DNA of 64,000 nt from an uncultured Candidatus Woesearchaeota archaeon (lineage in GTDB: Archaea; Nanobdellota; Nanobdellia; Woesearchaeales; GW2011-AR9), in contig CABZYC010000001.1 in the NCBI GenBank assembly GCA_902529885.1, positions 89,719 through 153,718 of the forward strand, written 5' to 3'. The notes under the pieces were generated by a model. It saw only the letters and a list, made by a program, of their open reading frames with translations, had not been told where the DNA came from and ran no database searches. Positions 1 through 59,287 of this stretch are shown one piece after another; position 1 is the first letter of the stretch; each line of letters begins with the position of its first letter. Made by a program: the position numbers and the translations under genes.

Positions 1-505
1 CTTCATTATACGTTAAGTCTGCAACAACTGTACCATCAACTTGACCAACAGCAACACTTGCAACCATGTCAGTCATTGGAATTCCTGCATCAGCAAGTGC
101 AATACTACTTGCAGAGATAGCTGCACAGCGTGTACCTGCATCTGTTTGCGGTAATTCAACAAACACGTCAACAATGGTGTTAGGATACTTGCTTAAATCT
201 ACGACAGGTTCTAACGCACCAGTCATTACTTTTCCAATTTCTTGACTCCGACGCTTATGACCAGGCCGTATCCGGCTACCATACCCACTAAAAGGCATCA
301 TGTTATAATGAAACCGTAAAATTCCTTTAGTTGGATTAGCTAAAAAACGAGGAGCAGGCCTTGGACCATATACTGCAACATAAACAACAGTGTTACCAAC
401 ACGAAAATATGCAGAACCGTCAGCATTAGGTATTACACCTGAACGTGCTTCCATTTCACGAAGCTCTTTGGTCTTCCGTCCATCAAGCCGTTTATTGTAC
501 GCCAT
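1..505 (-). CDS. rrp41: Exosome complex exonuclease Rrp41 (RNase PH-like), N-terminal part. The gene continues past the window start.
   Basis: The reverse-strand translation from ATG at 503-505 reads MAYNKRLDGRKTKELREMEARSGVIPNADGSAYFRVGNTVVYVAVYGPR..., a typical archaeal Rrp41 N-terminus. It overlaps the Rrp4 3' end by 14 nt, the standard Rrp4-Rrp41 operon order. It is absent from the ORF track because it runs off the edge. Confidence 0.85.
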   Translation of the reverse strand, partial: MAYNKRLDGRKTKELREMEARSGVIPNADGSAYFRVGNTVVYVAVYGPRPAPRFLANPTKGILRFHYNMMPFSGYGSRIRPGHKRRSQEIGKVMTGALEPVVDLSKYPNTIVDVFVELPQTDAGTRCAAISASSIALADAGIPMTDMVASVAVGQVDGTVVADLTYNE

Positions 506-1175
506 TTAAATAAGCCTCCACCTTCTCTGTTAAGCCGCTCTGGTGAGCATGTTCATTAACAATTTTAATCGCGTTCTCTGCACGATACTCGTTTTCGGGA
601 GTATCTGCACGAATCCACACTAAGCCATTCTGGCCAACAGTAATATCTGCATTAGTTTGCTTTTTAATTAAGCCAATCATGCTACCCATTTTACCAATAA
701 CCCGTGGCACTTTATTACAATTAATTTTAATCACTCGCCCACCTTCTAAACGATGAAGTTCGGGGTCACGCATCCCAACGTCAACCATGTTTTGAGAACT
801 AACTTTGGTTATCTTAACAACACAAAAATCGCCTATATCAAGCAGGTTACGTAAATTTTCTGATTTTACAAATTTGTTACTTGCATCACGCACAGGTAAC
901 ATTGCAGGATAAACAGAGCCAGTATTAATACGCCACCCACTCATTAAAATATCGTACACTTTCCCAATTATTTTATCGCCAACCCTCGGGAAATAAGGGC
1001 CGTTCAAAGGAGTTACTTTAATAACGCGGCCATCAGTGCCGACTGTCCCTAATCGTTTTGCAACAATTTCTTCCTCACGACGAAAGGTGTTATCACCAGG
1101 TAGGTGGTCCATCCCCGTCGCTAATATTTGACCTGGCACAACTACTTGCCGTGCCTCAACGTGTATATTACTCAT
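492..1175 (-). CDS. rrp4: Exosome complex RNA-binding protein Rrp4 (S1 + KH domains)
   Basis: A 227-aa protein with an N-terminal domain, a central S1-like segment (GDxVIGKV) and a C-terminal KH-like segment (VIGKMGSMIGLIKKQT). It is positioned between the SBDS and Rrp41 genes as in the archaeal exosome superoperon. Confidence 0.9.
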   Translation of the reverse strand: MSNIHVEARQVVVPGQILATGMDHLPGDNTFRREEEIVAKRLGTVGTDGRVIKVTPLNGPYFPRVGDKIIGKVYDILMSGWRINTGSVYPAMLPVRDASNKFVKSENLRNLLDIGDFCVVKITKVSSQNMVDVGMRDPELHRLEGGRVIKINCNKVPRVIGKMGSMIGLIKKQTNADITVGQNGLVWIRADTPENEYRAENAIKIVNEHAHQSGLTEKVEAYLNGVQ

Positions 1176-1818
1176 TGTAAATCTCTATCGTACCGTGCGC
1201 TACAGACTGTAACATGTCAATTAAGCGCTGTTGGAAACCAGCCGGTACTTCCACTTTTATCCTCCAACTACCAGACGAATCCCATTGCTCTTTTAAAAGC
1301 TTACTGTTCTGTCTGACAGTATGTTGAGTTGCACCAACATATTGGGCAGGAATAATTATAGTAAAGACTTTAGTTTCTATACTAATAGGTATTATTGGTC
1401 TAAGCCTACGAATTATATCATCAAACTGACTTTTTACGCTCGCATGCTCAGACAAATGAACTTTGGCCTGTTCAAGCGAAGATTGAATCACACTTTTTGT
1501 AAAAACTATTTTTGTTTGCGCATTAACACTGTTAACCTGTATCATATCGATCAAACGGTTCCATCGTTGTTCACGCTGCTTTTTGCGAACATCTGCTGGA
1601 ACCAAAATTTCTCCTCTTGAAGTCATTATAAGGATAACGTCTGCTGCAACAGTAGTGTTAAACACTGTCTGCAATTCTTGGTTTGATGGTCGTAAACCCT
1701 GACTTATATCAGTATAAATATCAGTCAGTAGATAGTCACCATCAGGAAAAAGATCGTAATCTATCTCTGCTTCAAAATGTTCGTTACCTTTTTTATAACG
1801 TACAAGTGTCCGGCTCAT
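1168..1818 (-). CDS. Ribosome maturation protein SBDS/Sdo1 homologue
   Basis: A 216-aa protein with an SBDS-like (FYSH-like) N-terminus MSRTLVRYKKGNEHFEAEIDYD. It sits between psmA and rrp4 exactly as in the conserved archaeal exosome/proteasome superoperon. There is an 8-nt overlap with the rrp4 start. Confidence 0.75.
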   Translation of the reverse strand: MSRTLVRYKKGNEHFEAEIDYDLFPDGDYLLTDIYTDISQGLRPSNQELQTVFNTTVAADVILIMTSRGEILVPADVRKKQREQRWNRLIDMIQVNSVNAQTKIVFTKSVIQSSLEQAKVHLSEHASVKSQFDDIIRRLRPIIPISIETKVFTIIIPAQYVGATQHTVRQNSKLLKEQWDSSGSWRIKVEVPAGFQQRLIDMLQSVAHGTIEIYNE

Positions 1819-2516
1819 TTAAGGTATGTCTTTAAGTCAGCAGAACTCAGATGTTTTTTACCATCACTCTTCACTATAACTGCGTCAACACGGTCAATAC
1901 TAAAGTCTCCTTGTAAATATTCTTTTAAACTATTCACTGCGAGAGATAAGCCTTCTTTGACAGAGATTGAAGCACGATACTTTTTTTGTAATACTTCAGT
2001 GATCTCTTGCTCACCTTCACCAATAACTACTGCTTTATACTGAAAATATAAGCCGTAAGGTTCAGTTAAATACAATTTTGGTGAACCGTCATTTTCAACA
2101 CCTGCAATCAATAAACTTACACCGAATGGCCGAAGACCGCCTGACTGAGTACATATCTGTTTTAAATCACATATCTCTTTTACGATTGATAACACATCAA
2201 TAGGTGAATCATACGTTACACGGTGCTGCTGACTTTTAACCTGTGCACGGTCAACAAGTACACGAGCGTCAGGGATAATACCTGCTGCAGTCAATACAAC
2301 ATGGTCGTCAACATCGAACACCTTCTCTACACTTTCTGGAATCATTAGTTTGCTTGCAACACGCTTATCAGCTACTAACACAACACCGTCTTTACACATT
2401 ATACCAATAGCCGTGCTACCTTGCTTAACAGTCTTTTTTGCATATTCTACCTGTAACAATCGTCCGTCAGGACTAAACATTGTAATACTACGATCATAAC
2501 TCATTTTATCAATCAT
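1815..2516 (-). CDS. psmA: Proteasome alpha subunit
   Basis: Contains YDRSITMFSPDGRLLQVEYA, the canonical proteasome alpha signature. The protein is 233 aa and its ATG was confirmed at 2514-2516. Confidence 0.95.
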   Translation of the reverse strand: MIDKMSYDRSITMFSPDGRLLQVEYAKKTVKQGSTAIGIMCKDGVVLVADKRVASKLMIPESVEKVFDVDDHVVLTAAGIIPDARVLVDRAQVKSQQHRVTYDSPIDVLSIVKEICDLKQICTQSGGLRPFGVSLLIAGVENDGSPKLYLTEPYGLYFQYKAVVIGEGEQEITEVLQKKYRASISVKEGLSLAVNSLKEYLQGDFSIDRVDAVIVKSDGKKHLSSADLKTYLK

Positions 2517-2833
2517 TTTAATTCCTCTTTCGCTTTCGCGATAATACCAGTGGTTAACACACTAGATATGGTAACTTCTTTATTTTTATACATTGTGATA
2601 AGAAACATTGACTTAATAACATCTTTCACGTACGAAGGTGCACAACGTACAATGAAACGGTTCCCTTCAACACATTCAGGTAACAACTGTATACCGCTAT
2701 CCCCTAGATACATACCAAAACACTTTTCAAACTGCTTTTGCACCATTGAAAGTAACTCTTTTTTAGACAGCTTAATTGAACATTCAAACAAGACATAACG
2801 TTTCTTATCCTTTAAAGAAGGGCGAAGTTTCAT
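2513..2833 (-). CDS. RNase P protein component Pop5/Rnp2-like
   Basis: A 106-aa protein beginning MKLRPSLKDKKRYVLFE, the Pop5 family N-terminus. It lies directly upstream of psmA in the exosome superoperon. Confidence 0.65.
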   Translation of the reverse strand: MKLRPSLKDKKRYVLFECSIKLSKKELLSMVQKQFEKCFGMYLGDSGIQLLPECVEGNRFIVRCAPSYVKDVIKSMFLITMYKNKEVTISSVLTTGIIAKAKEELK

Positions 2834-2857: not shown

Positions 2858-5800
2858 TTAAAACTTGCCACCTTCAAGCTCTTCACGAAGGTCCACAATC
2901 TTTTGGTACACTTTACTTTGTAGTACAGGACTTAAACTTCCATACATCTTGTACACCTTCATGTAATATTTGCGTTTTTCTGTAGACTTATCAGACTTTT
3001 TAGCTAAATCAATCAAATTTTCAATACGTTTCTCAGCAAGTAATTGTCCTTCTATCTGTGAACGTAAACTCATTACGCGGCCATAATAATCTTGCTTTTT
3101 ACTTTCACTCAGTTTCATATACAATTCGTAAGCTGACCCATAATGACTTTTCAAGGTGTCTACACTTGACACATCAACACTACCTTCAATCTTGCGTAAA
3201 CGTCTTCGTAATCGGCGGTGTGGGGCTATTAAATCGTACCCAATGAATAAGCCGCCAAGGAACGTAAAACCACCTATTCCTGAAGCTAATAGTAACGTCA
3301 TGTTAACGGGCCCTTCCTCTTGCTGCACAATAACTTGTGGAGGAGTAACCACTATCTGTTCAGGGACAGTTTTGGCATCACTAAAGTCGCCCGGGCACCA
3401 TTGTTCTTCTGTAGGTTTTTCTTTACGTAGAAAGTTCCCTAACCCGTACTCTTCAAAACAGCTGTTTGCATCAGTACAATCTCGAACTTGAAAGTTATCA
3501 TCACAAACAGACCAGTCGCCACATTCCCATTCCTGCGTACAATCATCAGAAGTCAAGGTGTAACTTGAACCACCACCAGATGAACTGCTACTAGATGAAC
3601 TTCCGCCACCGCCACCGCCACCGCCAGATGAACCGCCACTTGATGAACCACTATCATCATCAGAACTACTGTCATCAGAACTATCATCGTCATTTGTTAA
3701 AGCTGCTAACCTTGAAGTGAGGCTACTTGTATAATTACCTAACAAAGGCAGATAATCCCCACCAACACTTATGTTGCCGGACGCATTGTACGGAACAGGC
3801 CTATCTGCAATACCATCACTTGAAATGTTTGGGATCCCAGAATAAGTACCGTTCCCATCATCTTTCCCATCATCTTGGTAATCACTGTACCAGTTACCAC
3901 CAGTACAGTTGTTGCCCAGAATGTTTGTTTTGGAACAATCATACGATGAATTAAAGATAGTATCATTATGACTAATTATTGAAACGTTACTTGTGTTAAA
4001 TATATTATCATAGACCCTTATGCTAGCATTCGTAATGTCTACACCAATTGGACAATTAAACTCGTTACCTGCAACCTGTATAAAATTTGCAACAGATATG
4101 TTTCTAATTTTAACACATGTATCATTCGCACCAACGTACGTGCCACGGATATAACCTTCGTTATTATCCCTACGAGATATTCCTGTCACAACATCATAAA
4201 TCGTGGAATTAAGAATGTATGCATCACCTAACTGTGATACACCCAACACCGAACCTTTGATTACAGAACGGTTAATAGTACCATGATCCACCATTGTTGC
4301 CCCAATACTAAAATTAGAAACAATACAGTTTTTGAACGTATTCTGAGCACTCATGTTCACAGCCATGCCTGTCCCATTACCAATAAGACTATGGCCTGAA
4401 CAGTCAAAAGTTATGGCAGGAGTTTGCAGGTTAAAACAAGTTTCACCATCAGTTAAGTTTATTGTAATATCTTGGTTCAAGGTTACATTCATTGTAACAT
4501 TCTGTTCAGTACCACCACAACTTATTTCCCCTACCTCTGTCAAGGGCAGCATGTCACCAAACGCCCCTGTATCAGAACCGTTGAATGGAAGCAAAGTTTC
4601 ACCTACACCGTCCAAATCTACGTCCCAGCCATCGTAGCTACCCCAGTAATTACCACCAGTACAATTACCACCAAGAATGTTAATGCTTGAACAGTTCAAA
4701 GTAGTATTCCAAGAAATATCTGAATGTACATCATGGTATGCAGGATAGGTTGTGTTAAACAAATTATTGTACAATGTTACATTAGTCGTGTTTTGGAAGT
4801 AAACACTATAATTCTTCAAATTATATGCTTTATTATTAGCCATCACAGTCGAGTTTACTGTATCAAAAGTGACAGTTGTAGTACTATGATTGAAAGTATT
4901 ATTCAATAAATTACTTCCACTAACCTTGTACATCATTAAAGGTACGCCATCAGAACCATTAAACAAGAGCTTGAACACAGTCAATGAAGCAGTATTCCTT
5001 ACTGTAACCCCATTTGTAGAATTATAAATTGAAACATTTGTAATGTTAACACCATCAATTAGATTGAGGTACATAGCTTCAGTTACAAAATTGTACAATA
5101 CGTTATTTTCCAATGTAAGATTATCTGAAGCAAGAACACGTACACCAACAGTACCATTCACAAACGTGTTATCAAATATTTGGTTATGATCAGATTCAAC
5201 CAATTGAACACTTCGATTCAAACGAAGGAACGTGTTAGAAGTAATATAACTATTATTTATTTCACTAAAATTAACACCAATAAAACTGTCAGCGATAGTC
5301 ATCCCACTTATGTTTATGCCCACTGCAGGATCAACATAAACAGCCGTTGTAAAATTGCTTACAGTACCACCAGTCAAAGTCACATTATCATAATCACTAA
5401 TGTTCACGCCAATACCGCTACCGTTACCAATAAGTTCATTACCGTTAAGGTCAATCACAATGTTGTCTGCTTTCACAATGAAGGCTGACTGGTTACATGA
5501 AACATCTTCAGTTAAAGTAATATCATGGTAAATGTGTGCGCCGCACATCATATTAAAATCAACGTATGCAACACCACTCCTGTTAACAACAGGCGCAGTA
5601 TTGAAATTTACCAAATAGTGTGAACTGTTCGCAGACGCGTTCATTGCACCACCCATAGATTTTATCCGTCTATCACAACTGTCTGGTTCTAACCCAGTAG
5701 CGTTCCAATCAATGCAAACCCCACCATTCAAACGTTGTTGATGCTGTAACATAACAGTTGCATAATCAACCTCGCTACGTTCAGCAGTGTTACCAAGGTC

Positions 5801-8800
5801 AGTAATGCCACTAAAATTAAAATAAGTGTTTGTACCATTACTTGATAACACAAAAGTGCTGGCGTTAAAGTCAGTCTCATTAAACAAGGACCTAAACCGC
5901 CAAATAGGGTAAGAACTACTGTACGTAATATACTGCCAAACGTTAGGTACAATCTCGCCATCTTCAAGCGTGCCCGTATAAGAAGCTGTAGCTGTCAAAC
6001 TTGCAGTTGCACTATCAGACGGTGCATAGTATACACGGCTCACATACAACATTAAAGGTAACTCATCATGCGTGTCAGAATCAATATTGTACCGAGTAGG
6101 CTGATCACTAATACCGTCACCTTCTACACCACCATTATACCCGTTGTCAAGCCCGTAAAAGTCATTGTAAAAGTTTCCGCCCTTACATGGTCCGCCAACA
6201 ATGTTTGGACCATCCGAGCAAGTGTATGAACCGTACCAAGTGTTACTACCGGTATCATCAACATTTTCGGTGTTATCAAAATAATTGTCTTTAATAGTAT
6301 TAGAATCACTTGACGTAATATTTAACCCGTACCCATTATCTTCAATCCAGTTCTCAGCAATAATGTTACCGTCACTATCACCTTGCAATAACATACCGCC
6401 TGCGTTACGTCGTAGAACGTTGTACACTATGTTCATTGAATCAACATCAGTAAAATTGTACGCAGTCTTATTACTATCCTGGATGTCAATGTCCCTAAAA
6501 TGTTCTCCTAAAACACTGTTCAATACAGCAGTTGTGTTCAAGTTAAAAAAGCGGGCGTTCAAATAATCAGTGTTACTAACCACCATGGTGTCTGCTGACG
6601 AATAAGATAATTGAATGTTTGAACTAGTGTCAACCTCAATTGTGTCTTCAAGCGTGTTATTTGTGAAAAGGTTTTCTGCTAAATTTGATTTCACAATATC
6701 AACCATAGTAACATTCACACTTGTTATGTTCATTACAGTCAAATCTGATGCACCGTCAATATCTAAAAACCTTGAATATGTATCACCATAAATGTTTAAC
6801 AAGGCAACGTCTGCAAACCCAACAGAACCATTAGATGTATAGGTATTATTTATAGAATGCACATTTGTGCTTGAACCTACTTGCATCACGCTTAAATCGC
6901 TACTAAAATTGTTATCTGACAAATTTAGATTGTCAATATCACTAAGCATAATGTGTGCAGTACTAGCTTTGGACGCACTCCCATCAAATATGTTACCGCT
7001 CATGTTAACACCACCAATATCACCGTGGAATCGTAATGCATACTGTGAACTTTCACCAAACGTATTATTTTTAATAGTTATACCCGACACATTTTGGTAC
7101 ACACGCAATAAAGTTCGTGCGTCGTTAAACGTATTCTTGTAATACGTGTGAGCTTCACTAAAGGTTGCACTATACGACGCAAAATAATCGTGTCTATCAT
7201 AAGTGTTATACTGTACACTTGCACCGTCAACATTAACAAAGTATGACCCGTGATAATTCCTACTAAAATCGTTGCTGTGCACATAAACATTATCACTGTC
7301 AAACATGAACACACCGTAAAACTTTTTGTTCAAAGCAATAATGTTATCCGTCACATTTACATAAGACCCGTTCACAACATAAATCCCGTTATTATCACGT
7401 TCTAAGGAAGTGTTAGTAATAGTAGTATCATTCACGTCAACCATGTAAATACCATAAAAACTATTGTCAGTGATAACATTCTCTTTATCAATGTTAATCA
7501 CACTACCGCCTTGAATGTTAATACCATAATAAAAGTTCGATATGTTACATTCACGTATTGTAATGTTATTATAACCAATACTCTTAATCCCTGAACCAGA
7601 ACCAGACCCCATGATACTATAACCATTACAATCTAATAGAACGTTATCTGCAGCAATGTAGACTGCTTCATCTTCATCACAAAAAATGTCAGTATTCAAG
7701 GCAGTATCTTCTGTTATACTTATACAATTACTATGGCCTTCACCATCATCATTAGTCAATGGAAAATAGTCTAAATCGTCGTTAATTTGGTATGGAACTT
7801 GAGTGTCACCCACCATGTCACCTTGCACAGAATAGTTACCAAACCCACTCCCACTATCCATCCCAGCATAATTACCGTAATAGTTACCACCAGACATGTT
7901 ACCGCCAAGAATGTTTGTCCCGAGTTGGTACGTAACATTAAAACTGTTCGAACTATTAGAATCCTGGTACACATTATATTCAGTACAGCTAGAACTGCAG
8001 TCAGTTACATTAATGATGTTGTTATACACTAAATTATCAGTACTATTAATGATGTCTAAACCAGTATAAGTTATGCCATATATTGTATTGTTCACAATTA
8101 AACTGTCAGTAGTATCCTCTAAACGAATACCATAATCACTATTATTAATTGTAATATTGTTAACCACGATATTGTTTGATGGATCAATATAAACACCTAT
8201 GTCAAACCCAAAAATGATGCCGTTATTAATACTCACGTTCTCTGCATCTTCGACTTTTATTGCGTACCCTTCACCTTCACCTTGAAACGTAAATCCACCT
8301 AGGTCAAACACTAAGTCGTCGCCAGTGATAAGATAACATGCTTCACCATCACTAAGTGAGTCAACATAAAGGTCAGCAGTCATACTAAAATCGCTTGTAA
8401 CTTCTTGGCAGTCAGGAGTACCTATCAAAGGTAGACTATCATTAATAAAAGTGGTACTATCATTGTAAGGTACTAAAGTGTCACCGATAAAATCACCTGA
8501 CACGTTCGGAACATGTTCATTGCTAGCATTACCGTTATCAACCCCTGTGTACCCACTCCAATAATTACCACCTATGTAAGAGTTACCAACAATATTTGTC
8601 CCGCTTGAAAGTTGGCGATACGATACATTCCAAAAGTGGGTTCCTGAAACTACAACGTTGGGTTTACCTGAATCGTTCCGAAACAAATTGTTGTAGATAG
8701 TACTGTTTATACCTGAGATGTTTAACGAAAGGTTTTTAGAATTAATGAATTTATTTGCTGTAATATTAGTAGAATTTGCAAACTCAACAACTAAACCAAA

Positions 8801-11800
8801 ACTATTATCTTCAAAAATATTACCTGAAATTGTCTTATTAGTACCATTGTAGTAATATAAACCGTACACATTATTTTCAAACGTACTATCCTCAATTGTA
8901 GCGTTACCGTAAACATGCAGAATACTATTATTATAATATTCGATTGAAGATAAAGTGGAAGTTCCGTTAATTGTCACCTCAGTAACATTTGTTAACACAA
9001 CATTGTCGAAGGTAACATTCTCTAGGTTTAAAGTATAATCACTTATGAATGTCACATTACTATCTTCTATTGTAGCAGTATGATTAGCTAAAATCAAGTT
9101 CGAGAAATGTTCAACGTTACAATCTACAACCGTTATAGAGTCATACCCAGTCGCATTAATAAAGGAACCAGTACCGTTACCAGTTACATTATAACCATCA
9201 CAATCCAAGGTGATATCGTCTGCTGCAAAATAGAAGCATGAGCCATTGCTTGAAAGATCACTCATCAATGTAATCGACTCACTATACGTCCCACCACATT
9301 GTGGTTCCCCTGGTGTTGTCAAAGGATAATAGTCACCTGGACTAAAATTACCTTCTTGAGTATAAGGGTAACTTAAGATAGATGTCCCATTCCCATAGAT
9401 ATCAGCAATACCATCACCAGTAATATCTGTTACATTAAGCTCAGCATAAAAGTTTCCTCCAAAATATACGTTACCATTTGCAGTGTCAGACACATTATAG
9501 TAAATATTATTGTCTCTCCCAGAAATAATTTGGGGGGTTATATTAAAATGGTTATATCCAGAGGTATCATTTATATTTATTGTATTCCCACTGAAATAAT
9601 TGTTAAAAATAGATACATTATTATTTATTGAACCAGATGAAGGAAATTGAATCCCTTGCTGGTTGTTAATAAAAAAAAAGTCAGTTATATTGATTGGATG
9701 TTTGGTGCCATTCAAAGCACGCATATAAAGGCCAATAGTATTATTCGTTATATTGACTATGCCCGAACCATAAACTGGATCAGATTCATAACGAGGAGGA
9801 ATGATACCAGCACAGTTACTATATATCCCTATTGAATTATTAGTTAAAATTATTGATTCCGCACGAGATAGATCAAAATAAGATTGTTCATCTAAACAAC
9901 TATTCGACGTGACCGCCCATAATCCCTCTGTGTTATTTTCTATTAACACGTTACCTATAATCTCAATCATCCCATAATGGTTTGGATTTATACGAAGACC
10001 ACTATCACCTCCACTAATGTTAACTTGATCTATGAAAGCTTCACCATCTTCAATTAATACGCCCCAACCCATAGAGGATGAAGTGTTAAAAACACCAGAA
10101 ATTGTTGGTTTTTGACCACCAAGGTTATCAACTAATATACCAAACCTCCAATAATCTAAGAATGTATTTAACTCAGTGGTTGATAGCGTCATTGAACTAT
10201 TTTCTAAATGGATTCCAGTATACCCCCCTTGTATCAAATTTCCTTCAATTATTAATTCATCATCACTAACATCTTCTAATTTTATTGCAGTCCCAACGGC
10301 CGCAGGCGCAGTTATATTTACAAATGAGTTATGGCTTATATTATTCTTCAATGAACCTGCCAATAACTCAATATGGATGAGATCCCAACCACCATAGAAA
10401 GGTCCAAACGTGTTATCATACACTTTATTCCCACCCATTGCAGTTGCAGTCGAAGTAATTATTGGCCCACCATTAAATACAATACCTCGTGTAGAATTAG
10501 TAAAGTTTGTCCAACTCGCATTTTCAGCCAGTGTTTCGCTTGAATTCCAATCAATAAACGTGTTACTATGTATCAAACTGTCGTGGACCCGGTCTTTCAA
10601 AAAGACATTCTCAATATTATTGTGGATACTATTATTATACAACGTTAGATCATTCGTGTCTTCTAAATATACACCGTACGTAAAATTAATGAATTCGCAG
10701 CCTTGAATTGTAACATTGTCATACCCAATAACTTCTATAGCACGCATGTGTGTTTCATTAGCATTTGAACCTTGCCCAATAAACCTTGTACCGTCACATG
10801 TCAAAATTGTATCATCACAAGTAATAGCTAAACCTTCTCCACCCTCGTCTGCATAAATGTCCATGTCCGGACATGTAACTTCACCACATATAGACCCAGG
10901 TATACTACACACATTCTCAATAAGGGGGTAACGGTCACCTTGGTCAAGAATCGGTTCAATCGATTCATTAGTACGGTGAGGCGTGTCAGTGTTACCTAAA
11001 CCGTCACCATCTGTATCATAACCGTGGTATGATCCCCAAAAGTTACCTCCAAGAAAGTGGCCGCCAACAATATTAGATTGGACTGGATCTAGGTCGTACA
11101 AAGGAGACTTTGCAACGTTCCAATACACATAACTGTTACTGTCTGTTTGTGCATTATCTTGACCATCCAAAAACTTGTTATCATAAATGACAGAAGCATT
11201 ATAATCAGTTAACTGTGTACGATCTGATCCATTCACTAAAGTCTCATTAAGATCATCACCAGAATCGTCACCAGTAAACAAAGCGGTGTTATTTACGTTT
11301 TGAATTAATAATGTCCCATTACTGAACGTGTTTAATGAAATTAAATGACCATACGTCCCATCAATGAACAAAGACTGGGTGTTGTTATCCATTAAGTTAG
11401 AAAGGATTGTGTTTTCTAAACCACCTGTGTCCATTCGAACACCATGGTCAAAACCATAGATCCTACAATTTTTAATGGTAACATTATCTCGCCCAGAAAG
11501 TTTGAACCCACTAAAATTATGGGTTGCGTTAGCTTGACAATCCATACAAGTTATACTGTGATTCCGACAATTAATCTCAACATTATCACGTTTTAAAACA
11601 AAACCATCCTCCTCATAACACTCAAAATCGTGTGCAATGTTATCTATACTTTCATACACTGCAATATCGCAGGAAGATATTGTTTCAACACCAATAATTG
11701 CACCCAATAAATTTCCATCTGAAGCGAAATATATGCCGCCAATAGCAACAGCTACTAACATGATTGCAGCTAACGCTAATGAGCCTCGGGTATTACGTTC

Positions 11801-11803
11801 CAT
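2858..11803 (-). CDS. Giant (2,981 aa) membrane-anchored surface protein made of multiple NosD/pectin-lyase-like right-handed beta-helix repeat domains
   Basis: A single uninterrupted reverse-strand ORF with ATG at 11801-11803. The TTG one codon upstream was used by the ORF track. The N-terminus carries a signal-anchor helix (LALAAIMLVAVAIGGIYF). At least six motifs of the form GGN[YF][WY].SY.G.D.DGDG(I/V)(G/A)D recur (LGGNFWGSYHGYDTDGDGLGNTDTP, IGGNYWSGYTGVDNG, GGNYYGNYAGMDSGSG, GGNFYNDFYGLDNGYNGGVEGDGISD, LGGNCTGGNYWGSYDGWDVDLDGVGE, LGNNCTGGNWYSDYQDDGKDDGNG), as in NosD/PbH1 beta-helix proteins. N-x-S/T sequons are very frequent. The C-terminal part has a D/S/G-rich low-complexity linker (…GGGGGGGGSSSSSSSSGGG…), a Cys-rich module, a TM helix (LLLASGIGGFTFLGGLFIGYDLI) and a ~170-aa basic coiled-coil cytoplasmic tail. 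Confidence 0.85.
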   Translation of the reverse strand: MERNTRGSLALAAIMLVAVAIGGIYFASDGNLLGAIIGVETISSCDIAVYESIDNIAHDFECYEEDGFVLKRDNVEINCRNHSITCMDCQANATHNFSGFKLSGRDNVTIKNCRIYGFDHGVRMDTGGLENTILSNLMDNNTQSLFIDGTYGHLISLNTFSNGTLLIQNVNNTALFTGDDSGDDLNETLVNGSDRTQLTDYNASVIYDNKFLDGQDNAQTDSNSYVYWNVAKSPLYDLDPVQSNIVGGHFLGGNFWGSYHGYDTDGDGLGNTDTPHRTNESIEPILDQGDRYPLIENVCSIPGSICGEVTCPDMDIYADEGGEGLAITCDDTILTCDGTRFIGQGSNANETHMRAIEVIGYDNVTIQGCEFINFTYGVYLEDTNDLTLYNNSIHNNIENVFLKDRVHDSLIHSNTFIDWNSSETLAENASWTNFTNSTRGIVFNGGPIITSTATAMGGNKVYDNTFGPFYGGWDLIHIELLAGSLKNNISHNSFVNITAPAAVGTAIKLEDVSDDELIIEGNLIQGGYTGIHLENSSMTLSTTELNTFLDYWRFGILVDNLGGQKPTISGVFNTSSSMGWGVLIEDGEAFIDQVNISGGDSGLRINPNHYGMIEIIGNVLIENNTEGLWAVTSNSCLDEQSYFDLSRAESIILTNNSIGIYSNCAGIIPPRYESDPVYGSGIVNITNNTIGLYMRALNGTKHPINITDFFFINNQQGIQFPSSGSINNNVSIFNNYFSGNTININDTSGYNHFNITPQIISGRDNNIYYNVSDTANGNVYFGGNFYAELNVTDITGDGIADIYGNGTSILSYPYTQEGNFSPGDYYPLTTPGEPQCGGTYSESITLMSDLSSNGSCFYFAADDITLDCDGYNVTGNGTGSFINATGYDSITVVDCNVEHFSNLILANHTATIEDSNVTFISDYTLNLENVTFDNVVLTNVTEVTINGTSTLSSIEYYNNSILHVYGNATIEDSTFENNVYGLYYYNGTNKTISGNIFEDNSFGLVVEFANSTNITANKFINSKNLSLNISGINSTIYNNLFRNDSGKPNVVVSGTHFWNVSYRQLSSGTNIVGNSYIGGNYWSGYTGVDNGNASNEHVPNVSGDFIGDTLVPYNDSTTFINDSLPLIGTPDCQEVTSDFSMTADLYVDSLSDGEACYLITGDDLVFDLGGFTFQGEGEGYAIKVEDAENVSINNGIIFGFDIGVYIDPSNNIVVNNITINNSDYGIRLEDTTDSLIVNNTIYGITYTGLDIINSTDNLVYNNIINVTDCSSSCTEYNVYQDSNSSNSFNVTYQLGTNILGGNMSGGNYYGNYAGMDSGSGFGNYSVQGDMVGDTQVPYQINDDLDYFPLTNDDGEGHSNCISITEDTALNTDIFCDEDEAVYIAADNVLLDCNGYSIMGSGSGSGIKSIGYNNITIRECNISNFYYGINIQGGSVINIDKENVITDNSFYGIYMVDVNDTTITNTSLERDNNGIYVVNGSYVNVTDNIIALNKKFYGVFMFDSDNVYVHSNDFSRNYHGSYFVNVDGASVQYNTYDRHDYFASYSATFSEAHTYYKNTFNDARTLLRVYQNVSGITIKNNTFGESSQYALRFHGDIGGVNMSGNIFDGSASKASTAHIMLSDIDNLNLSDNNFSSDLSVMQVGSSTNVHSINNTYTSNGSVGFADVALLNIYGDTYSRFLDIDGASDLTVMNITSVNVTMVDIVKSNLAENLFTNNTLEDTIEVDTSSNIQLSYSSADTMVVSNTDYLNARFFNLNTTAVLNSVLGEHFRDIDIQDSNKTAYNFTDVDSMNIVYNVLRRNAGGMLLQGDSDGNIIAENWIEDNGYGLNITSSDSNTIKDNYFDNTENVDDTGSNTWYGSYTCSDGPNIVGGPCKGGNFYNDFYGLDNGYNGGVEGDGISDQPTRYNIDSDTHDELPLMLYVSRVYYAPSDSATASLTATASYTGTLEDGEIVPNVWQYITYSSSYPIWRFRSLFNETDFNASTFVLSSNGTNTYFNFSGITDLGNTAERSEVDYATVMLQHQQRLNGGVCIDWNATGLEPDSCDRRIKSMGGAMNASANSSHYLVNFNTAPVVNRSGVAYVDFNMMCGAHIYHDITLTEDVSCNQSAFIVKADNIVIDLNGNELIGNGSGIGVNISDYDNVTLTGGTVSNFTTAVYVDPAVGINISGMTIADSFIGVNFSEINNSYITSNTFLRLNRSVQLVESDHNQIFDNTFVNGTVGVRVLASDNLTLENNVLYNFVTEAMYLNLIDGVNITNVSIYNSTNGVTVRNTASLTVFKLLFNGSDGVPLMMYKVSGSNLLNNTFNHSTTTVTFDTVNSTVMANNKAYNLKNYSVYFQNTTNVTLYNNLFNTTYPAYHDVHSDISWNTTLNCSSINILGGNCTGGNYWGSYDGWDVDLDGVGETLLPFNGSDTGAFGDMLPLTEVGEISCGGTEQNVTMNVTLNQDITINLTDGETCFNLQTPAITFDCSGHSLIGNGTGMAVNMSAQNTFKNCIVSNFSIGATMVDHGTINRSVIKGSVLGVSQLGDAYILNSTIYDVVTGISRRDNNEGYIRGTYVGANDTCVKIRNISVANFIQVAGNEFNCPIGVDITNASIRVYDNIFNTSNVSIISHNDTIFNSSYDCSKTNILGNNCTGGNWYSDYQDDGKDDGNGTYSGIPNISSDGIADRPVPYNASGNISVGGDYLPLLGNYTSSLTSRLAALTNDDDSSDDSSSDDDSGSSSGGSSGGGGGGGGSSSSSSSSGGGSSYTLTSDDCTQEWECGDWSVCDDNFQVRDCTDANSCFEEYGLGNFLRKEKPTEEQWCPGDFSDAKTVPEQIVVTPPQVIVQQEEGPVNMTLLLASGIGGFTFLGGLFIGYDLIAPHRRLRRRLRKIEGSVDVSSVDTLKSHYGSAYELYMKLSESKKQDYYGRVMSLRSQIEGQLLAEKRIENLIDLAKKSDKSTEKRKYYMKVYKMYGSLSPVLQSKVYQKIVDLREELEGGKF

Positions 11804-11919
11804 CAAATCGCCTCAGACCTATCCTTGATTGAGTATAAGCAATGAAAATAATACAATTTGTACGTATATAAATATTTGGATTAAGATACGTTTATATATT
11901 CTTTAAACCTTATTAATTT
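11804..11919. promoter_or_regulatory. AT-rich divergent promoter region between the giant surface-protein gene and the small Cys-rich protein genes
   Basis: A 116-nt intergenic spacer with TATA-like boxes (tttatata ~25 nt upstream of the ATG at 11920, and a cttatact-like element on the opposite strand). No coding potential. Confidence 0.35.
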
Positions 11920-12219
11920 ATGGAGTACAAAAAACATGTTACTATGATCTTAGGAGCAATACTTTTTGTAGCAACAGTCGGCACACTCACCACATTTTCA
12001 AATGAAATAAGTATAGCCTCAACAGGGATGGCTACAAGTACAGTCCTTGGTTCAGATAAAGGAATAGTTGACCAATTCACAAATTATTGTGAGTGGTATG
12101 ATTCAAATGACGAGACAGACTGTGAAGAAACATGTGAAGAAAAAATATGTATACCCCTAACAGAAATGTGTGATGAAGTTAATAGCACACAATGCTATTG
12201 TTGTGAGGTGAAATCATGA
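11920..12219 (+). CDS. Small secreted/membrane Cys-rich protein (hypothetical)
   Basis: A 99-aa protein with an N-terminal hydrophobic segment (TMILGAILFVATVGTL) and a C-terminal Cys cluster (CEWYDSNDETDCEETCEEKICIPLTEMCDEVNSTQCYCCEV). It overlaps the next ORF as ATGA. Confidence 0.5.
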   Translation: MEYKKHVTMILGAILFVATVGTLTTFSNEISIASTGMATSTVLGSDKGIVDQFTNYCEWYDSNDETDCEETCEEKICIPLTEMCDEVNSTQCYCCEVKS

Positions 12220-12512
12220 AAGATCCAAACGATTACATCGTAATTGGAGTATGGTTCGTTGCCTTAATTTGCGTCATGGTAATCATTGGTGCATTCCAAT
12301 CAACAGGACAGGCATCAAACACAGGAGAATATACTATCACAGACGGAATTAATGCATTAGCAAACACATACAGCTTAGAAGGAGAAGGTGGAGTTAAGTG
12401 TTCACATTCAAGTTTATGTGATGGAAGAGCAATCACACAATTTGTAGACACCAAATTCACATCAGTTTTTGAAACAAGAAGAGGGAGTCATGTCTGCATC
12501 TGCCTCAATTAA
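12216..12512 (+). CDS. Small membrane-anchored Cys-containing protein (hypothetical)
   Basis: A 98-aa protein with a TM helix (IVIGVWFVALICVMVIIGAF) followed by an extracytoplasmic region with 4 Cys. It is translationally coupled to the preceding ORF. Confidence 0.5.
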   Translation: MKDPNDYIVIGVWFVALICVMVIIGAFQSTGQASNTGEYTITDGINALANTYSLEGEGGVKCSHSSLCDGRAITQFVDTKFTSVFETRRGSHVCICLN

Positions 12513-13942
12513 AAAGATAAATCTTCAATTTTAACACGTTCTTGTTCCATTGTATCACGGTCACGGACCGTCACACAACCATCTTCTAACGATTCAAAAT
12601 CCACAGTTACACAGTAAGGTACACCCATCTCATCAGCGCGTGCATACCTACGCCCGATGCTACCACTCACGTCAAAACTAACACTGTAACATTCTTTTAA
12701 TAAAGTGAACACTTCTTCAGCTTTCGCAAGTAAATGCGCCTTATTTTTTACTAAAGGGAGTACAGCAATATTGAATGGTGCAACCGATACAGGCAAAGCC
12801 AAATTAACATGGCCACGATCATCTTCAGAATATGCTTCAAACAAAACCATTAGCATCACTCGTTCTAAACCATGCGTTGGCTCAATACAATGCGGTACAA
12901 ACTTTTTTTGTGTTGCATCATCAACAACAGTCACGTTCATCCCACTATGTTTTGCGTGCGCCTGCAAGTCGTAATCGCCACGGTGCGCAATACCAAACAC
13001 TTCCTTAAACCCGAACGGAAACTTGTATTCAATATCAAAGGTCGCACTACTATAATGGCTCAGTTCCTTACCTACATGTTCACGTACACGCAAGTTTTCA
13101 GAAGATACACCTAACGTATTAACATAAAAATGGTAGTATTCATACAACCAATACACTTGCCACGTGTTCACACCTTTATCAATGAACCATTGGAACGTGT
13201 ATTCTTCAGCGTCAGCATTAGAACCCTGGTGTTCTTCAGATAAGACAGATATTGGGGTTGCCAAAAGTTCTTTTGATAATTCACAACCTTTTTCAGGGTG
13301 CACAAAAAATTCCATCTCCATTTGATTAAATTCACGAAGACGAAACAAAAAGTCGCGTGGACTAATTTCGTTCCTATAGGCTTTTCCAACCTGGCACACA
13401 CCAAAAGGTGGTTTTAACCGTGACGTTTCTTTAATCAAAGCGAACTGTGCAAAAATGCTTTGTGCAGTCTCAGGCCGTAAATACGCCGTGTTCCCATCAA
13501 CAGCGCCAACTTGCGTTTGAAACATTAAATTGAATTGTTGCACAGGTTCAAAATCTTCACCATTATACTGCAGTTTATGTTTATTAATCAAGGTTTGAAT
13601 TTCGTCCGCAGACATACCGTCAGCAGCAATGTTTAATGTTTCTTCAATAAAATGGTCCGCTCGAACTTTAGTACGAGTTTTCACAGTAGTCAACATTAAA
13701 TCGCCAAAAGTTGCAACGTGCCCGCTTGCTTCCCACACTTTAGGATTTGTTACAATTGTACCATCGAAAGGTACAATGTTGCGACGATCCAAGAATTTGA
13801 GCCATGCATTAACAACGTTACGTTTAATACGCGCACCCAGCGGACCATAATCATAAAACCCTGCATAACCACCGTAAGCGTCAGCAGAACGAAAAGCAAT
13901 ACCTTTCTTTTTACAAAATGTTGCAAAATCTTCAATGTTCAT
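12509..13942 (-). CDS. glyS: Glycyl-tRNA synthetase (archaeal/eukaryotic-type class II)
   Basis: A 477-aa protein whose N-terminus AFRSADAYGGYAGFYDYGPLG is diagnostic of alpha2-type GlyRS. The class II core and a C-terminal anticodon-binding domain are present. Confidence 0.95.
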   Translation of the reverse strand: MNIEDFATFCKKKGIAFRSADAYGGYAGFYDYGPLGARIKRNVVNAWLKFLDRRNIVPFDGTIVTNPKVWEASGHVATFGDLMLTTVKTRTKVRADHFIEETLNIAADGMSADEIQTLINKHKLQYNGEDFEPVQQFNLMFQTQVGAVDGNTAYLRPETAQSIFAQFALIKETSRLKPPFGVCQVGKAYRNEISPRDFLFRLREFNQMEMEFFVHPEKGCELSKELLATPISVLSEEHQGSNADAEEYTFQWFIDKGVNTWQVYWLYEYYHFYVNTLGVSSENLRVREHVGKELSHYSSATFDIEYKFPFGFKEVFGIAHRGDYDLQAHAKHSGMNVTVVDDATQKKFVPHCIEPTHGLERVMLMVLFEAYSEDDRGHVNLALPVSVAPFNIAVLPLVKNKAHLLAKAEEVFTLLKECYSVSFDVSGSIGRRYARADEMGVPYCVTVDFESLEDGCVTVRDRDTMEQERVKIEDLSF

Positions 13943-28048: not shown

Positions 28049-28864
28049 ATGAACGTTTTAATCAGTAGCGATGTGGAAGGTGTGTGCGGAGTAGATGATT
28101 ACGAGTATATAAACGGCCTTGACAAAAACAAGCTTGAACAAGGCAAAAAATGGGTTACAGAAGAACTTAATGTACTTATTGACGTCTGCTTTGAAAAAGG
28201 TGCGAAAAAAGTTATGGTTGTTGATGGGCATGGGAAAGGTGACAACATTATCATGAATCTTCTTGACGACCGCGCGATGATACTTCGTAAGCATGAATAC
28301 AGAATGATCGAAGGTATCACAGACAATGTTAACTATTTAATTCTGCAGGGGTACCACGGGAAAGCCAACGTCGCAAACTCTTTTACGGCACACAGCTATT
28401 CAAGCTTCTTTTTTTCAGAAGTGCGTGTTAACGGCCGTAGTATTGGAGAATCTGAACTTAATGCTATGGTAGCTAAACAACTAGGTATCAAAACAATCTT
28501 ACTAACAGGAACAAAAGAAGCTATTAACGAATGTCAGATTAAAGGGTTACAAACAGTTGAAACTAAAGAAAGCCTATCATGGTCAACAGCACAGTCTTAT
28601 GACCAAAAAGTAGTTTTGAAAAAAATGAAAGAGAAGTGTGAACACGCATTTGACACAAAGGATTCTATTGATTACATTGACGACGAAATTTATAATGTGG
28701 AGATTGAAGTTGAATTGAACCATTTAGCAATAGCAGAATTGTTAGCATACCCACGAATTAATCCTAAAACGATTTCTTTTGATGCACCGAGTATTGAAGA
28801 TGCGTACCTAGAACTAATGCGTATTGGACAAGCATGTAAAAAGTTGTATTCAACAATTTATTGA
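28049..28864 (+). CDS. dppA: D-aminopeptidase DppA family (peptidase M55)
   Basis: The N-terminus MNVLISSDVEGVCGVDDYEY matches M55 'MKxxISADxEGxxGV'. The downstream VVDGHG and HGKANV regions are conserved. The protein is 271 aa. Confidence 0.8.
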   Translation: MNVLISSDVEGVCGVDDYEYINGLDKNKLEQGKKWVTEELNVLIDVCFEKGAKKVMVVDGHGKGDNIIMNLLDDRAMILRKHEYRMIEGITDNVNYLILQGYHGKANVANSFTAHSYSSFFFSEVRVNGRSIGESELNAMVAKQLGIKTILLTGTKEAINECQIKGLQTVETKESLSWSTAQSYDQKVVLKKMKEKCEHAFDTKDSIDYIDDEIYNVEIEVELNHLAIAELLAYPRINPKTISFDAPSIEDAYLELMRIGQACKKLYSTIY

Positions 28865-30575: not shown

Positions 30576-30593
30576 TAAGAAATAGGTACACAC

Positions 30594-59213: not shown

Positions 59214-59287
59214 AGTAGTCACCTATGCTTATCTTCAAAGTGAACGTACTTTATAAACATTCATATCGTAAAACTACTATCCAGTGA

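Follow-up and report, generated by a model that had tools for sequence, protein, structure and literature searches.

A giant beta-helix protein of a Woesearchaeal archaeon is the big version of a previously undescribed family of small two-TM membrane proteins

The 64-kb stretch of DNA analysed here (the window) carries on its minus strand the uninterrupted open reading frame for a giant protein that was noted originally (2858..11806; 2,982 codons counted from a TTG). This TTG lies one codon before the in-frame ATG at 11803 (codon 2), and because a GAGG (11811-11814) stands 7 nt upstream of the ATG, the likely product has 2,981 aa. Stop codons make up ~6.8% of random triplets at 37% GC, and the computed probability of a chance frame of this length is ~e^-210. 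The gene lies in a slot between ProRS and Pop5 (Table 1), where the downstream genes Pop5–PsmA–SBDS–Rrp4 (492..2833) are the leading genes of the archaeal exosome superoperon, their order being kept in relatives; the element TTTATATA is proposed as a candidate archaeal promoter.

Table 1. Features of the giant gene and its neighbours, in window coordinates (all on the minus strand)
Feature	Position	Residues	Details
Rrp4	492-1175		downstream of giant
SBDS	1168-1818		downstream of giant
Proteasome alpha PsmA	1815-2516		downstream of giant
Pop5	2513-2833		downstream of giant, 24 nt past its stop
Giant-protein CDS, complete	2858..11803		2,981 aa from ATG; stop TAA 2858-2860
Cytoplasmic domain	2861..3223	2862-2982	121 aa; PHRRLRRRLRK and two helical-hairpin units
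Two homologous Tyr/Lys-rich helical-hairpin units	3044-3160, 2867-2983		hhalign
TM2	3224..3301	2836-2861	KD19 peak 1.81; helix 12-37 of AF2 model
Six-Cys module	3395..3541	2756-2804	6 Cys; core CTQEWECGDWSVCDDNFQVRDCTDANSC
S/G/D low-complexity linker	3563..3694	2705-2748	sequence
Beta-helix module 7	3728..4519	2430-2693	cap GGNWY aa 2636
Beta-helix module 6	4520..5545	2088-2429	GGNYW aa 2384, then DVDLDG; NosD 1.7e-23
Conserved non-beta-helix insert	5546..6022	1929-2087	between modules 5 and 6
Beta-helix module 5	6023..7726	1361-1928	GGNFY aa 1876; NosD 3.6e-26, Beta_helix 9.4e-24
Beta-helix module 4	7727..8413	1132-1360	GGNYY aa 1306; NosD 1.2e-13
Beta-helix module 3	8414..9301	836-1131	GGNYW aa 1079; NosD 4.5e-12
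Beta-helix module 2	9302..10909	300-835	GGNFY aa 783; NosD 2e-09, Beta_helix 5.8e-09
Beta-helix module 1	10910..11689	40-299	GGNFW aa 253, then DTDGDG; NosD 4.2e-14 alone
TM1	11723..11779	10-28	LALAAIMLVAVAIGGIYFA, preceded by R-G-S; KD19 peak 2.46
TATA-box-like element (candidate)	11865..11872		TTTATATA; 61 nt upstream of ATG; sequence only
Class II aaRS, ProRS type	12509-13942		upstream of giant
AAA ATPase	13973-15034		upstream of giant

A domain scan agrees with the original description of the giant as a surface protein built of NosD/PbH1-type beta-helices in an archaeon with a small genome: Pfam NosD matches in nine stretches (8.8e-92, 306.8 bits) and Beta_helix in ten (163.8 bits). Seven right-handed beta-helix modules of the NosD type are present, each with a GGN[FYW][WY] cap at its end that has the general form TNILGG..GGNYW..D.(D)GDGIGD..PY…D.LPL, where at least six such motifs had been counted; of the D.DGDG ending ascribed to them, a strict DxDxDG follows just two caps (aa 264 and 2397) and the rest have a looser GD[GFM][IV][GAS]D. 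Scanned singly, six of the seven modules match NosD; module 7 has no Pfam match on its own and resembles modules 3 and 4 (27% identity, E 1e-10 to 1e-13) and module 6 (36% identity across 95 aa). The AF2 model of module 6 has a beta-helix core (pLDDT 85-96), and the insert, which has no Pfam match when scanned alone and is modelled as all-beta (pLDDT 46-76), is conserved in all 17 homologous giants.

These homologues, 2,219-3,110 aa long, were drawn from assemblies of JGI, ENA, NCBI and Logan, and the same design recurs in at least 16 independent assemblies. Each of the 16 complete ones begins with K/R-G-S and TM1 and ends with TM2 and the tail, and module order is colinear (aa 764-2213 aligns with 696-2119 of giant L026 at 36% identity). 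Such recurrence bears on an assembly artefact, in which collapsed or chimeric repeats would have created a false long frame, or a beta-helix gene would have been falsely fused to a small two-TM gene. In favour of this, the source sequence is of metagenome type, the protein is built of repeats, and no record elsewhere has exactly its sequence, the protein being a new, divergent member of its group. However, long or near-identical DNA repeats are absent (self-hits reach about 50 nt at 80%), the modules are only 25-36% identical to one another and colinear with the orthologous modules of other giants, and the complete giants share N-terminus, C-terminus and genomic slot. Assembly error, which had been named as a possible source of the length, is thus very improbable: The giant is encoded by one real gene in a DPANN archaeon of the Woesearchaeota, and its modules are old, mutually divergent paralogues.

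The strong Pfam match might also be taken to mean that the giant is NosD itself (i.e., the accessory protein of nitrous-oxide reductase maturation), implying a role in denitrification, and NosD hits in DPANN archaea have been taken as denitrification-related in the literature (PMC7906910). However, the giant scores 82.8 bits against NCBIfam TIGR04247, whose cutoff is 300; nosZ, nosF, nosY and nosL were not found among the window ORFs scanned, and the giant is flanked by ProRS and Pop5. NosD is a single domain of ~400 aa, as against seven modules in 2,981 aa. The failed equivalog threshold and the gene context refute this identity, to which we assign next to no probability, and "NosD-like" remains apt at the level of fold and domain.

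The ectodomain has further features of a surface protein. The dense sequons noted originally were confirmed, with 147 N-x-S/T in the giant versus 60.4 ± 6.9 in shuffled sequences (2.4-fold enrichment), and the enrichment is directional (146 N-x-S/T versus 59 reversed S/T-x-N in the ectodomain). The homologous giants show it too, but P0167 and P0168, two unrelated proteins with beta-helices, do not; no sequon falls in the tail. Likewise, all 48 cysteines are in the ectodomain and none in the tail, and the ectodomain is strongly acidic (332 D+E versus 97 K+R). The sequon statistics suggest that the ectodomain is N-glycosylated; a check for the glycosylation machinery found neither AglB nor a glycosyltransferase among the ORFs scanned in the window. 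The S/G/D linker and the Cys-rich module are both present as noted originally. The linker contains short tandem DNA repeats (3603-3626, 3650-3692). The core of the Cys module is a single unit of an extracellular repeat that occurs widely and for which Pfam has no model, and the module is found elsewhere alongside the archaeal S-layer Pfam domain PF07752.

Apart from TM1 and TM2, the latter matching the TM helix noted originally, the giant has no further hydrophobic helices (all other KD19 windows ≤1.2). TM1 is read as an N-terminal signal-anchor homologous to the TM1 of a family of small two-TM proteins: N-termini are conserved among giants, and a [KR]G ahead of a hydrophobic stretch occurs in 20 of 21 giants and 33 of 55 small homologues. 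The sequence after TM1 (…IYFA|S) does not fit a signal peptidase I site of the A-x-A type. Because TM1 belongs to a conserved two-TM hairpin and lacks such a site, the giant is most likely membrane-anchored at both ends, with its N-terminal helix retained, and not bitopic as had been proposed. Acidic residues precede TM2 and RRLRRRLRK directly follows it; the positive-inside rule, together with the distribution of sequons and cysteines, suggests a chain in which a short basic cytoplasmic N-terminus (…TRGS) would lead into TM1 crossing outward, ~2,800 residues would lie outside the cell, and the chain would return via TM2 to end in the cytoplasmic domain. Outside, modules 1-7, with the all-beta insert between 5 and 6, would be followed by the flexible S/G/D linker, the disulfide-rich module and a P/E/Q-rich stalk.

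The tail had been described as ~170 aa long, basic and coiled-coil-like, of which the basic and helical character stands (27 K+R and 17 D+E in the last 134 aa, with the basic PHRRLRRRLRK close to the membrane), but it is 121 aa long, and its model shows two copies of a helical hairpin. Its AF2 model is entirely helical (pLDDT 88.8, pTM 0.68), and hhalign detects the internal duplication with 98.4% probability (E 8.5e-15). The tail family has no match in Pfam, NCBIfam or PDB, and a structure search with the fold gave no significant match.

Searching a representative library yielded 526 tail-family homologues, comprising giants and proteins of ~150-240 aa that match only TM2 and the tail. The N-terminal helix, TM2 and tail of the giant are homologous to this small two-TM family (median 180 aa), which is without a Pfam, NCBIfam or PDB match and was previously undescribed. 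Two hydrophobic segments are present in 46 of 55 small members, where the median loop between them is 11 aa, versus ~2,800 aa in the giant; 16 of the 55 also match a loose motif of four residues after TM1, approximately where giants have theirs. Genomic position corroborates the relationship: 50 of 80 Woesearchaeal PsmA loci contain exactly one family member, invariably on the PsmA strand and upstream of that gene, and the giant is the sole member in the window. The order AAA–ProRS–(family gene)–Pop5–PsmA–SBDS–Rrp4 is found both in the window and around small member P0151, the AAA ATPase and ProRS pair precedes the small homologue in L082, and giant P0159 is followed by OB–Pop5–PsmA–SBDS–Rrp4–Rrp41–Rrp42. 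By homology and synteny, the giant is the orthologue of the small two-TM protein, for which Woesearchaeota have a single gene in the same slot between ProRS and Pop5. In one part of the family the inter-TM loop holds the beta-helix array, and the difference may have arisen by loop expansion or by repeated ectodomain loss; a neighbour-joining tree of the family, built on 125 aa, is weak evidence on this point.

Close relatives agree best in the tail (85-100% identical) and differ most in the ectodomain, whose N-terminal blocks are 59-80% identical, or 6-60% where modules have been inserted or deleted. The earlier idea that the tail couples the giant to the cell interior is reinforced, since this slowest-evolving domain is shared with ~180-aa homologues lacking an ectodomain. 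We consider it reasonably probable that the giant is a two-anchor surface coat, acidic and glycosylated, that binds glycans or serves in adhesion and has a conserved intracellular docking domain. Its glycosylated ectodomain would project from the membrane as a long loop and diversify quickly, and the Tyr/Lys-rich double hairpin, its ancestral part, would dock to a conserved partner in the cytoplasm or at the membrane face.

Foldseek searches with the module 6 core retrieved polysaccharide lyases, glycosidases and phage tailspikes, raising the alternative that the modules are themselves such enzymes, displayed on the cell like phage depolymerases and digesting the capsule, EPS or cell wall of a host or neighbour, not merely binding or coating. 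The nearest solved fold is the Klebsiella K1 capsule lyase 7w1c (E 4.6e-4), with alginate lyase 6kfn (TMt 0.49, rmsd 4.8 Å), pectate lyases, polygalacturonases and phage tailspikes/depolymerases also among the closest, and genes for GH3, D-aminopeptidase and Asp/Glu racemase in the window would suit scavenging of cell-wall fragments. Such matches, however, barely reach significance and are of a kind that right-handed beta-helices give in general, no solved enzyme was matched at the sequence level, the Pfam matches include no CAZy-type catalytic family, and an array of seven tandem modules, so rich in sequons and so extremely acidic, looks structural; an enzyme array is therefore rather unlikely.

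The original S-layer-like or adhesin assignment holds as far as a surface protein is concerned, its functional part staying conjectural, as no S-layer or adhesin family profile matched. A lattice-forming S-layer protein (i.e., the main self-assembling wall sheet, with TM2 and the tail as membrane stalk) would suit a large, acidic, sequon-rich, membrane-anchored protein whose Cys module co-occurs elsewhere with PF07752, and the 24-nt spacer to the housekeeping genes directly downstream makes constitutive expression plausible. Against this, most Woesearchaeal relatives have only the small, ectodomain-less form at the locus, so that the ectodomain cannot be the group's universal wall, and rapid module turnover is unusual for a lattice protein. 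We regard this role as improbable, and favour the adhesive or glycan-binding coat.

Among the closest known counterparts are Woesearchaeota giants from public metagenomes, automatically named "Parallel beta-helix repeat protein" (for example P0153, P0002 and P0159), on which full-text literature searches found no paper; they are orthologues at 30-35% identity that share K/R-G-S with TM1, module order, insert, Cys module, TM2 with the tail, and a gene position ahead of Pop5–PsmA. Every module resembles the NosD and CASH/PbH1 domains (PF05048, PF13229) in being NosD-type with a C-terminal GGNYW…DGDGIGD cap and, in the AF2 core, a beta-helix; unlike NosD, the giant fails the equivalog model, has tandem modules, two anchors and many sequons, is archaeal and lacks nos neighbours. 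Of the solved folds, the lyases and tailspike depolymerases (7w1c, 6kfn, 2vbe) come nearest to the confident module 6 core, but at 10-15% identity and marginal E-values, with no sequence-level match and no catalytic residues identified in the giant. SPEARE proteins of Nanohaloarchaeota, giant DPANN host-interaction proteins, likewise combine very large size with a fast-evolving ectodomain in a small-genome episymbiont lineage; the giant differs in having no protease or nuclease domains, and we know of no SPEARE protein with a two-TM scaffold and cytoplasmic domain. Finally, S-layer glycoproteins with a C-terminal TM or lipid anchor, Sulfolobus SlaB and tetrabrachion attach large, acidic, N-glycosylated ectodomains to the cell through a TM segment at the C-terminus. 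The giant's acidic, sequon-rich ectodomain and C-terminal TM tether are alike in design, with no sequence or profile similarity to archaeal surface glycoproteins found. Unlike these proteins, none of which to our knowledge has an N-terminal TM helix together with a conserved cytoplasmic domain, the giant retains both.

The longest ORF of the window counts 2,982 codons from a TTG, and the 2,981-aa product of the original prediction is likely, because the ATG one codon downstream is preceded by a GAGG 7 nt to its 5' side, with TTTATATA 61 nt 5' of the same ATG. At 37% GC, stops would account for ~6.8% of random triplets, and we calculate that an ORF this long would arise by chance with a probability of ~e^-210. 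An assembly error (collapsed or chimeric repeats) could produce such a length, but we consider it exceedingly improbable: a DNA self-comparison of the gene contained no long or near-identical repeats, its best matches (~50 nt at 80%) falling over the conserved motif that caps each module. The seven beta-helix modules share only 25-36% pairwise identity and are colinear with those of other giants, i.e., homologous long beta-helix proteins (aa 764-2213 align with 696-2119 of one, L026, at 36% identity over 1,519 columns); this divergence and colinearity argue for an old array and not a recent or collapsed tandem. An exact-sequence look-up returned no database record of the giant. The gap between ProRS and the giant presumably contains the giant's promoter; it holds only two putative ORFs, on the opposite strand, and has no Rfam match, and tRNA and Rfam scans of the whole window were empty.

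Positions of features in the window and, within the giant, in its product
Feature	Window (nt)	Strand	Giant (aa)	Remarks
Longest ORF (giant gene)	2858..11806	-		from TTG
Likely start (ATG)	11803	-
Ectodomain			31-2820
GGN[FYW][WY] motifs			253, 783, 1079, 1306, 1876, 2384, 2636	seven
Conserved insert			1929-2087
Module 6 core			2085-2265
S/G/D linker			2705-2748
Cys module	3395-3541	-	2756-2804	6 Cys
TM2			2836-2861	hydrophobic helix
Cytoplasmic tail			2862-2982	121 aa
Pop5, PsmA, SBDS, Rrp4		-		downstream of giant, same strand; first starts 24 nt after its stop
ProRS-type aaRS, AAA ATPase				upstream of giant
Gap, ProRS to giant start	11807-12508			700 nt
Opposite-strand ORFs in gap	11920-12219, 12216-12512			no Pfam match
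D-aminopeptidase (Peptidase_M55)	28049-28864
Asp/Glu racemase	29838-30593
GH3 N-terminal domain protein	31384-32370
DsbA-like/cupredoxin-like protein	37013-38455	+		480 aa; thioredoxin domain at its aa 211-372
ORF without family	55530-56882			450 aa
Ig-like surface proteins	56952-59222, 59998-61251, 61378-63942	-		predicted

An exhaustive HMMER search of cluster representatives with the last 238 aa of the giant recovered 526 relatives (E ≤ 1e-3) of three kinds. Giants of 2,393-2,911 aa align with the query from end to end, proteins of ~150-240 aa align with TM2 and the tail alone, and the third kind comprises unrelated secreted proteins in which only the Cys module is matched, repeated in tandem up to 13 times. 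With the same 238 aa, a word-indexed homology search found nothing; a profile search of the word-indexed database gave only 5 matches. In the small proteins (median 180 aa), a short and basic N-terminus, often with K-R-G-S, leads into TM1; a loop connects this to TM2, after which come R-L-R-R-x-L-K-K and the cytoplasmic domain shared with the giant. Two hydrophobic segments occur in 46 of 55, with a median spacing of 11 residues (6-63). Members of intermediate size (240-584 aa: P0001, P0003, P0004, P0006 and L007) turned out to be C-terminal fragments of giants and not true intermediates. All 16 complete giants retrieved with the full-length query begin with K/R-G-S and TM1 and end with TM2 and the tail. 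We read the two ends of the giant as belonging to this small-protein family, whose traits (TM1, TM2, a basic R-L-R-R-x-L-K/R-K and two homologous ~40-aa units) it matches at 118 bits (E 1.2e-34, local profile search).

The TM helix and basic helical cytoplasmic tail of the original prediction are both present, although the tail measures 121 aa and not ~170. Its two halves are homologous (hhalign probability 98.4%, E 8.5e-15) and follow the consensus K..Y..iY.LY.KL(S/P)e..K..fY..v..LRe.lE, in which Tyr, Lys, Arg and Glu are nearly invariant. An AlphaFold2 model from a 16-sequence alignment is all-helical (pLDDT 88.8, pTM 0.68): besides TM2 it has a basic helix next to the membrane and four more, these five cytoplasmic helices being 15-37 residues long and arranged in hairpins. 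As modeled, the tail is a duplicated helical hairpin, and the coiled-coil reading of the original prediction (a long heptad-repeat helix pairing across chains) is a putative one. Comparison of the domain with Pfam, NCBIfam and PDB sequences gave only spurious TM or low-complexity matches, and a DUF3106 match appears in 7 of 56 tail-family members (best E 0.0038). Foldseek of the model against the PDB returned nothing below E 0.1; SbsC, IST1, CdvB and CdvB2 (ESCRT-III) scored E 0.1-2 with TM ≤ 0.46, which we judged not significant.

The archaeal 'exosome superoperon' (PMC2695463) begins, downstream of the giant, with the genes for the RNase P subunit Pop5, proteasome alpha, SBDS and Rrp4. PsmA of the window is 61-73% identical to that of 80 species-level genomes, titled Woesearchaeota, Nanoarchaeota or Nanoarchaeia save for 39 third-party bins titled 'uncultured Methanosarcinales', which we consider mislabeled, and 8 with no title but 'archaeon'; the host belongs to the DPANN archaea. 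The cytoplasmic-domain profile matched exactly one ORF in 50 of these 80 Woesearchaeal loci. This ORF shares the strand of PsmA and lies upstream of it in every case, and in ~35 of the 50 it comes directly before Pop5; in the window, the sole family member is the giant itself. The order AAA – ProRS – giant – Pop5 of the window recurs around a small homologue (P0151: AAA – ProRS – P0151 – OB-fold gene – Pop5), and the contig of another giant (P0159) reads giant – OB-fold gene – Pop5 – PsmA – SBDS – Rrp4 – Rrp41 – Rrp42 – Rpb6. Because the giant fills the slot of the small gene, we interpret it as that gene's orthologue, with an extracellular loop ~250 times longer. Relatives have a small OB_Ssb-like gene (100-130 aa) that separates the family gene from Pop5 (13457-13849 of locus L081 and 5575-5877 of L082); the window lacks this gene and has a spacer of just 24 nt at that point. 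Many third-party MAGs labeled 'uncultured Methanosarcinales archaeon' (e.g., L001, L007 and L010-L015) carry Woesearchaeota-like PsmA loci together with the two-TM family, and their taxonomic labels look wrong.

Both cytoplasmic faces of the membrane segments are positively flanked (MERNTRGS before TM1, PHRRLRRRLRK after TM2), and the outer faces by acidic residues. The 48 Cys lie without exception in the ectodomain, as do 146 of the 147 N-x-S/T sequons, and the tail has neither; the ectodomain is also strongly acidic (332 D+E versus 97 K+R). From these distributions we infer an N-in, C-in topology with the loop outside. Small homologues, with hardly anything to export, conserve TM1 as well, and the residues that follow this helix (…IYFA|S) do not form an A-x-A-type site, for which reasons TM1 is probably a retained anchor, giving the giant two anchors where the original prediction had it bitopic. 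Class III (type IV pilin-like) signal peptides carry [KR]-[GA] directly before a hydrophobic helix and are cut by prepilin peptidase. The R-G-S that precedes TM1 in the giant resembles such a signal, and [KR]G followed by a hydrophobic stretch occurs in 20 of 21 giants and 33 of 55 small members; cleavage there would still leave the TM1 helix on the protein.

That the ectodomain is built of beta-helices, as originally proposed, was borne out by domain scans: the giant matches Pfam NosD (PF05048) at 306.8 bits (8.8e-92, 9 stretches; gathering threshold 23.6 bits) and Beta_helix (PF13229) at 163.8 bits (3.1e-48, 10 stretches), with the PbH1 repeat (TIGR03804) borderline at 19.2 against a cutoff of 19.45. 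Scanned singly, modules 1-6 match NosD (37.7-92.4 bits) and module 7 fails its threshold. Every module opens with a Cys-bracketed …adNItLDCnGy.I.G.G.G.GI…NVTI.nC.I.nF..GI… and closes with the cap TNI(L/V)GG….GGNYW..Y.G.D…GD(G)I(G/A)D..PY….D.LPL. The prediction of at least six GGN(Y/F)(W/Y)…D.DGDG motifs is correct as to the GGN element, which is present seven times, but a strict DxDxDG is present after only two of the seven caps. In an AlphaFold2 model of aa 1925-2440 (mean pLDDT 60), only the beta-helix core of module 6 is confident, with short regular strands (pLDDT 85-96); the conserved insert is predicted to be all-beta at low-to-medium confidence, and the C-terminal cap end of module 6 has no confident fold. 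The anticipated S/G/D linker and Cys-rich module are also in place.

The exceptional sequon density is likewise genuine: the 147 N-x-S/T sequons compare with 60.4 ± 6.9 in shuffles (2.4-fold, z ~12.6). This enrichment is directional and spacing-specific, since the ectodomain holds 146 N-x-S/T, 59 reversed S/T-x-N and 44 N-x-x-S/T, and it is common to homologous giants and absent from two unrelated beta-helix proteins (P0167 and P0168). Of the glycosylation machinery for which the original prediction would look, neither AglB nor any glycosyltransferase was found among the 50 window ORFs scanned.

The Cys module has a ~28-aa core (CxxxWxCxxWSxCxxGxQTRxCxDxNxC) that recurs widely as an extracellular repeat, including in P0013, P0017, P0018, P0020, P0022, P0024, P0025, P0027 and P0084; many signal-peptide proteins, some with an archaeal S-layer domain (PF07752) or penicillin amidase, carry it in 3-13 tandem copies with a period of ~44 aa. 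No Pfam model covers this repeat. Its W..W..C…Q.R.C pattern is one that we take to resemble the thrombospondin type-1 repeat, but TSP_1 matched neither aa 2694-2982 of the giant (Pfam, E ≤ 0.1) nor proteins with 4-7 copies. A 480-aa protein encoded elsewhere in the window, in which a DsbA-like thioredoxin domain precedes a cupredoxin-like domain, could be an extracytoplasmic disulfide former for Cys-rich surface proteins, including the 48 outside Cys of the giant. The other end of the window holds a cluster of three more putative surface proteins, whose Ig-like domains are He_PIG, Big_9, Filamin and NPCBM_assoc; an ORF without family adjoins them. A D-aminopeptidase, an Asp/Glu racemase and a GH3 N-terminal domain protein, encoded close together, suggest that this archaeon scavenges bacterial cell-wall fragments or D-amino acids.

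In a neighbor-joining tree of the tail, which is weak, giants are confined to one part and small forms occur throughout, a distribution that favors expansion of the loop. Secondary loss of the ectodomain is a possible alternative: downstream of TM1, and roughly where giants have theirs, 16 of 55 small members match a loose motif of four residues. Whichever the direction, ectodomain and tail appear to evolve at different tempos. Two giants of 85% overall identity (P0153 and P0154) are 99-100% identical in the tail and 59-76% in the first ~800 ectodomain columns, and a pair of 50% overall identity (P0159 and P0007) retains 85% in the tail, with ectodomain blocks at 6-74% and 552 gap columns. These alignments indicate an ectodomain that is diversifying, with gains or losses of modules, and a tail that is conserved; the pattern fits a surface protein facing hosts, phages or changing substrates that is tied to a conserved intracellular function. 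In the orthologous 3,110-aa giant P0155 (NCBI), precomputed Hint/intein Pfam matches (PF07591, PF13403 and PF14890) raise the possibility that an intein or Hint domain may have inserted into a surface beta-helix protein.

We moderately favor the view that the giant is an acidic beta-helix surface protein, heavily glycosylated and held by two anchors, which would serve as a glycan-binding or adhesive coat while its tail docks to a conserved partner. A glycosylated acidic ectodomain would be built on the conserved two-TM scaffold, and the double-hairpin tail would engage that partner inside the cell. The proposed architecture and evolution we hold with considerable confidence; on the proposed function our judgment is evenly divided. 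A true lattice-forming S-layer protein is rather unlikely: no archaeal S-layer profile in Pfam or NCBIfam (e.g., PF07752) matches the giant. Its C-terminus is a TM helix followed by a 121-aa domain, not a short sortase-type sorting signal. That the ectodomain displays an array of polysaccharide-degrading enzymes is doubtful, if somewhat less so. The top Foldseek matches of the module 6 model are all beta-helix proteins (best E 4.6e-4), and the closest solved folds are those of capsule and alginate lyases, pectate lyases, polygalacturonases and phage tailspikes; such model-based matches point to the beta-helix fold class and nothing more specific, and phmmer matched the whole giant to no PDB sequence. 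It is quite improbable, though worth stating, that the two-TM double-hairpin family is an unrecognized part, seated in the membrane, of the Woesearchaeal exosome/proteasome/RNase P superoperon and tethers some of this RNA- or protein-processing machinery, or another conserved cytoplasmic assembly, with the giant as an outside-in coupler; if so, in lineages with giants a 2,800-aa adhesin loop between the two TM helices would transmit to the inside of the cell any contact with the surface of a host or substrate.

Ultra-small DPANN archaea are believed to attach to other cells, and to live off them, by means of giant surface proteins, almost none of which has to our knowledge been dissected. The architecture proposed here for one such family combines seven capped beta-helix modules and a stalk with two membrane anchors and a conserved cytoplasmic domain. 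The giant is a divergent member (30-35% identity) of the automatically named, undescribed 'parallel beta-helix repeat proteins'. A literature search found no published description of the two-TM family and no family model matches it, so that the family, its constant position where the exosome superoperon begins and the switch between loops of ~11 and ~2,800 aa appear not to have been described before. An unannotated family adjoins one of the most conserved gene clusters of archaea, and the same scaffold bearing a loop of either size is a natural experiment that separates the role of the tail from that of the ectodomain.

The term "NosD-like" holds for the Pfam domain of the giant but not for NosD proper, the nitrous oxide reductase maturation protein. 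The giant scores 82.8 bits against the curated cutoff of 300 for the NosD equivalog (TIGR04247) and no nos genes (nosZ, nosF, nosY or nosL) were found among the 50 window ORFs scanned, on which grounds we rule this identity out as having practically no chance of being right; the neighbors are ProRS, AAA, Pop5, PsmA, SBDS and Rrp4. In DPANN, nosD has been counted in 11 genomes and read as an accessory denitrification role (PMC7906910, section 8). Because multi-module surface beta-helix proteins match Pfam NosD strongly yet fail the equivalog model, this count may include giant-like proteins and thus be inflated, and Pfam NosD matches in DPANN should be taken for denitrification genes only after a further check, such as against the equivalog model and for neighboring nos genes.
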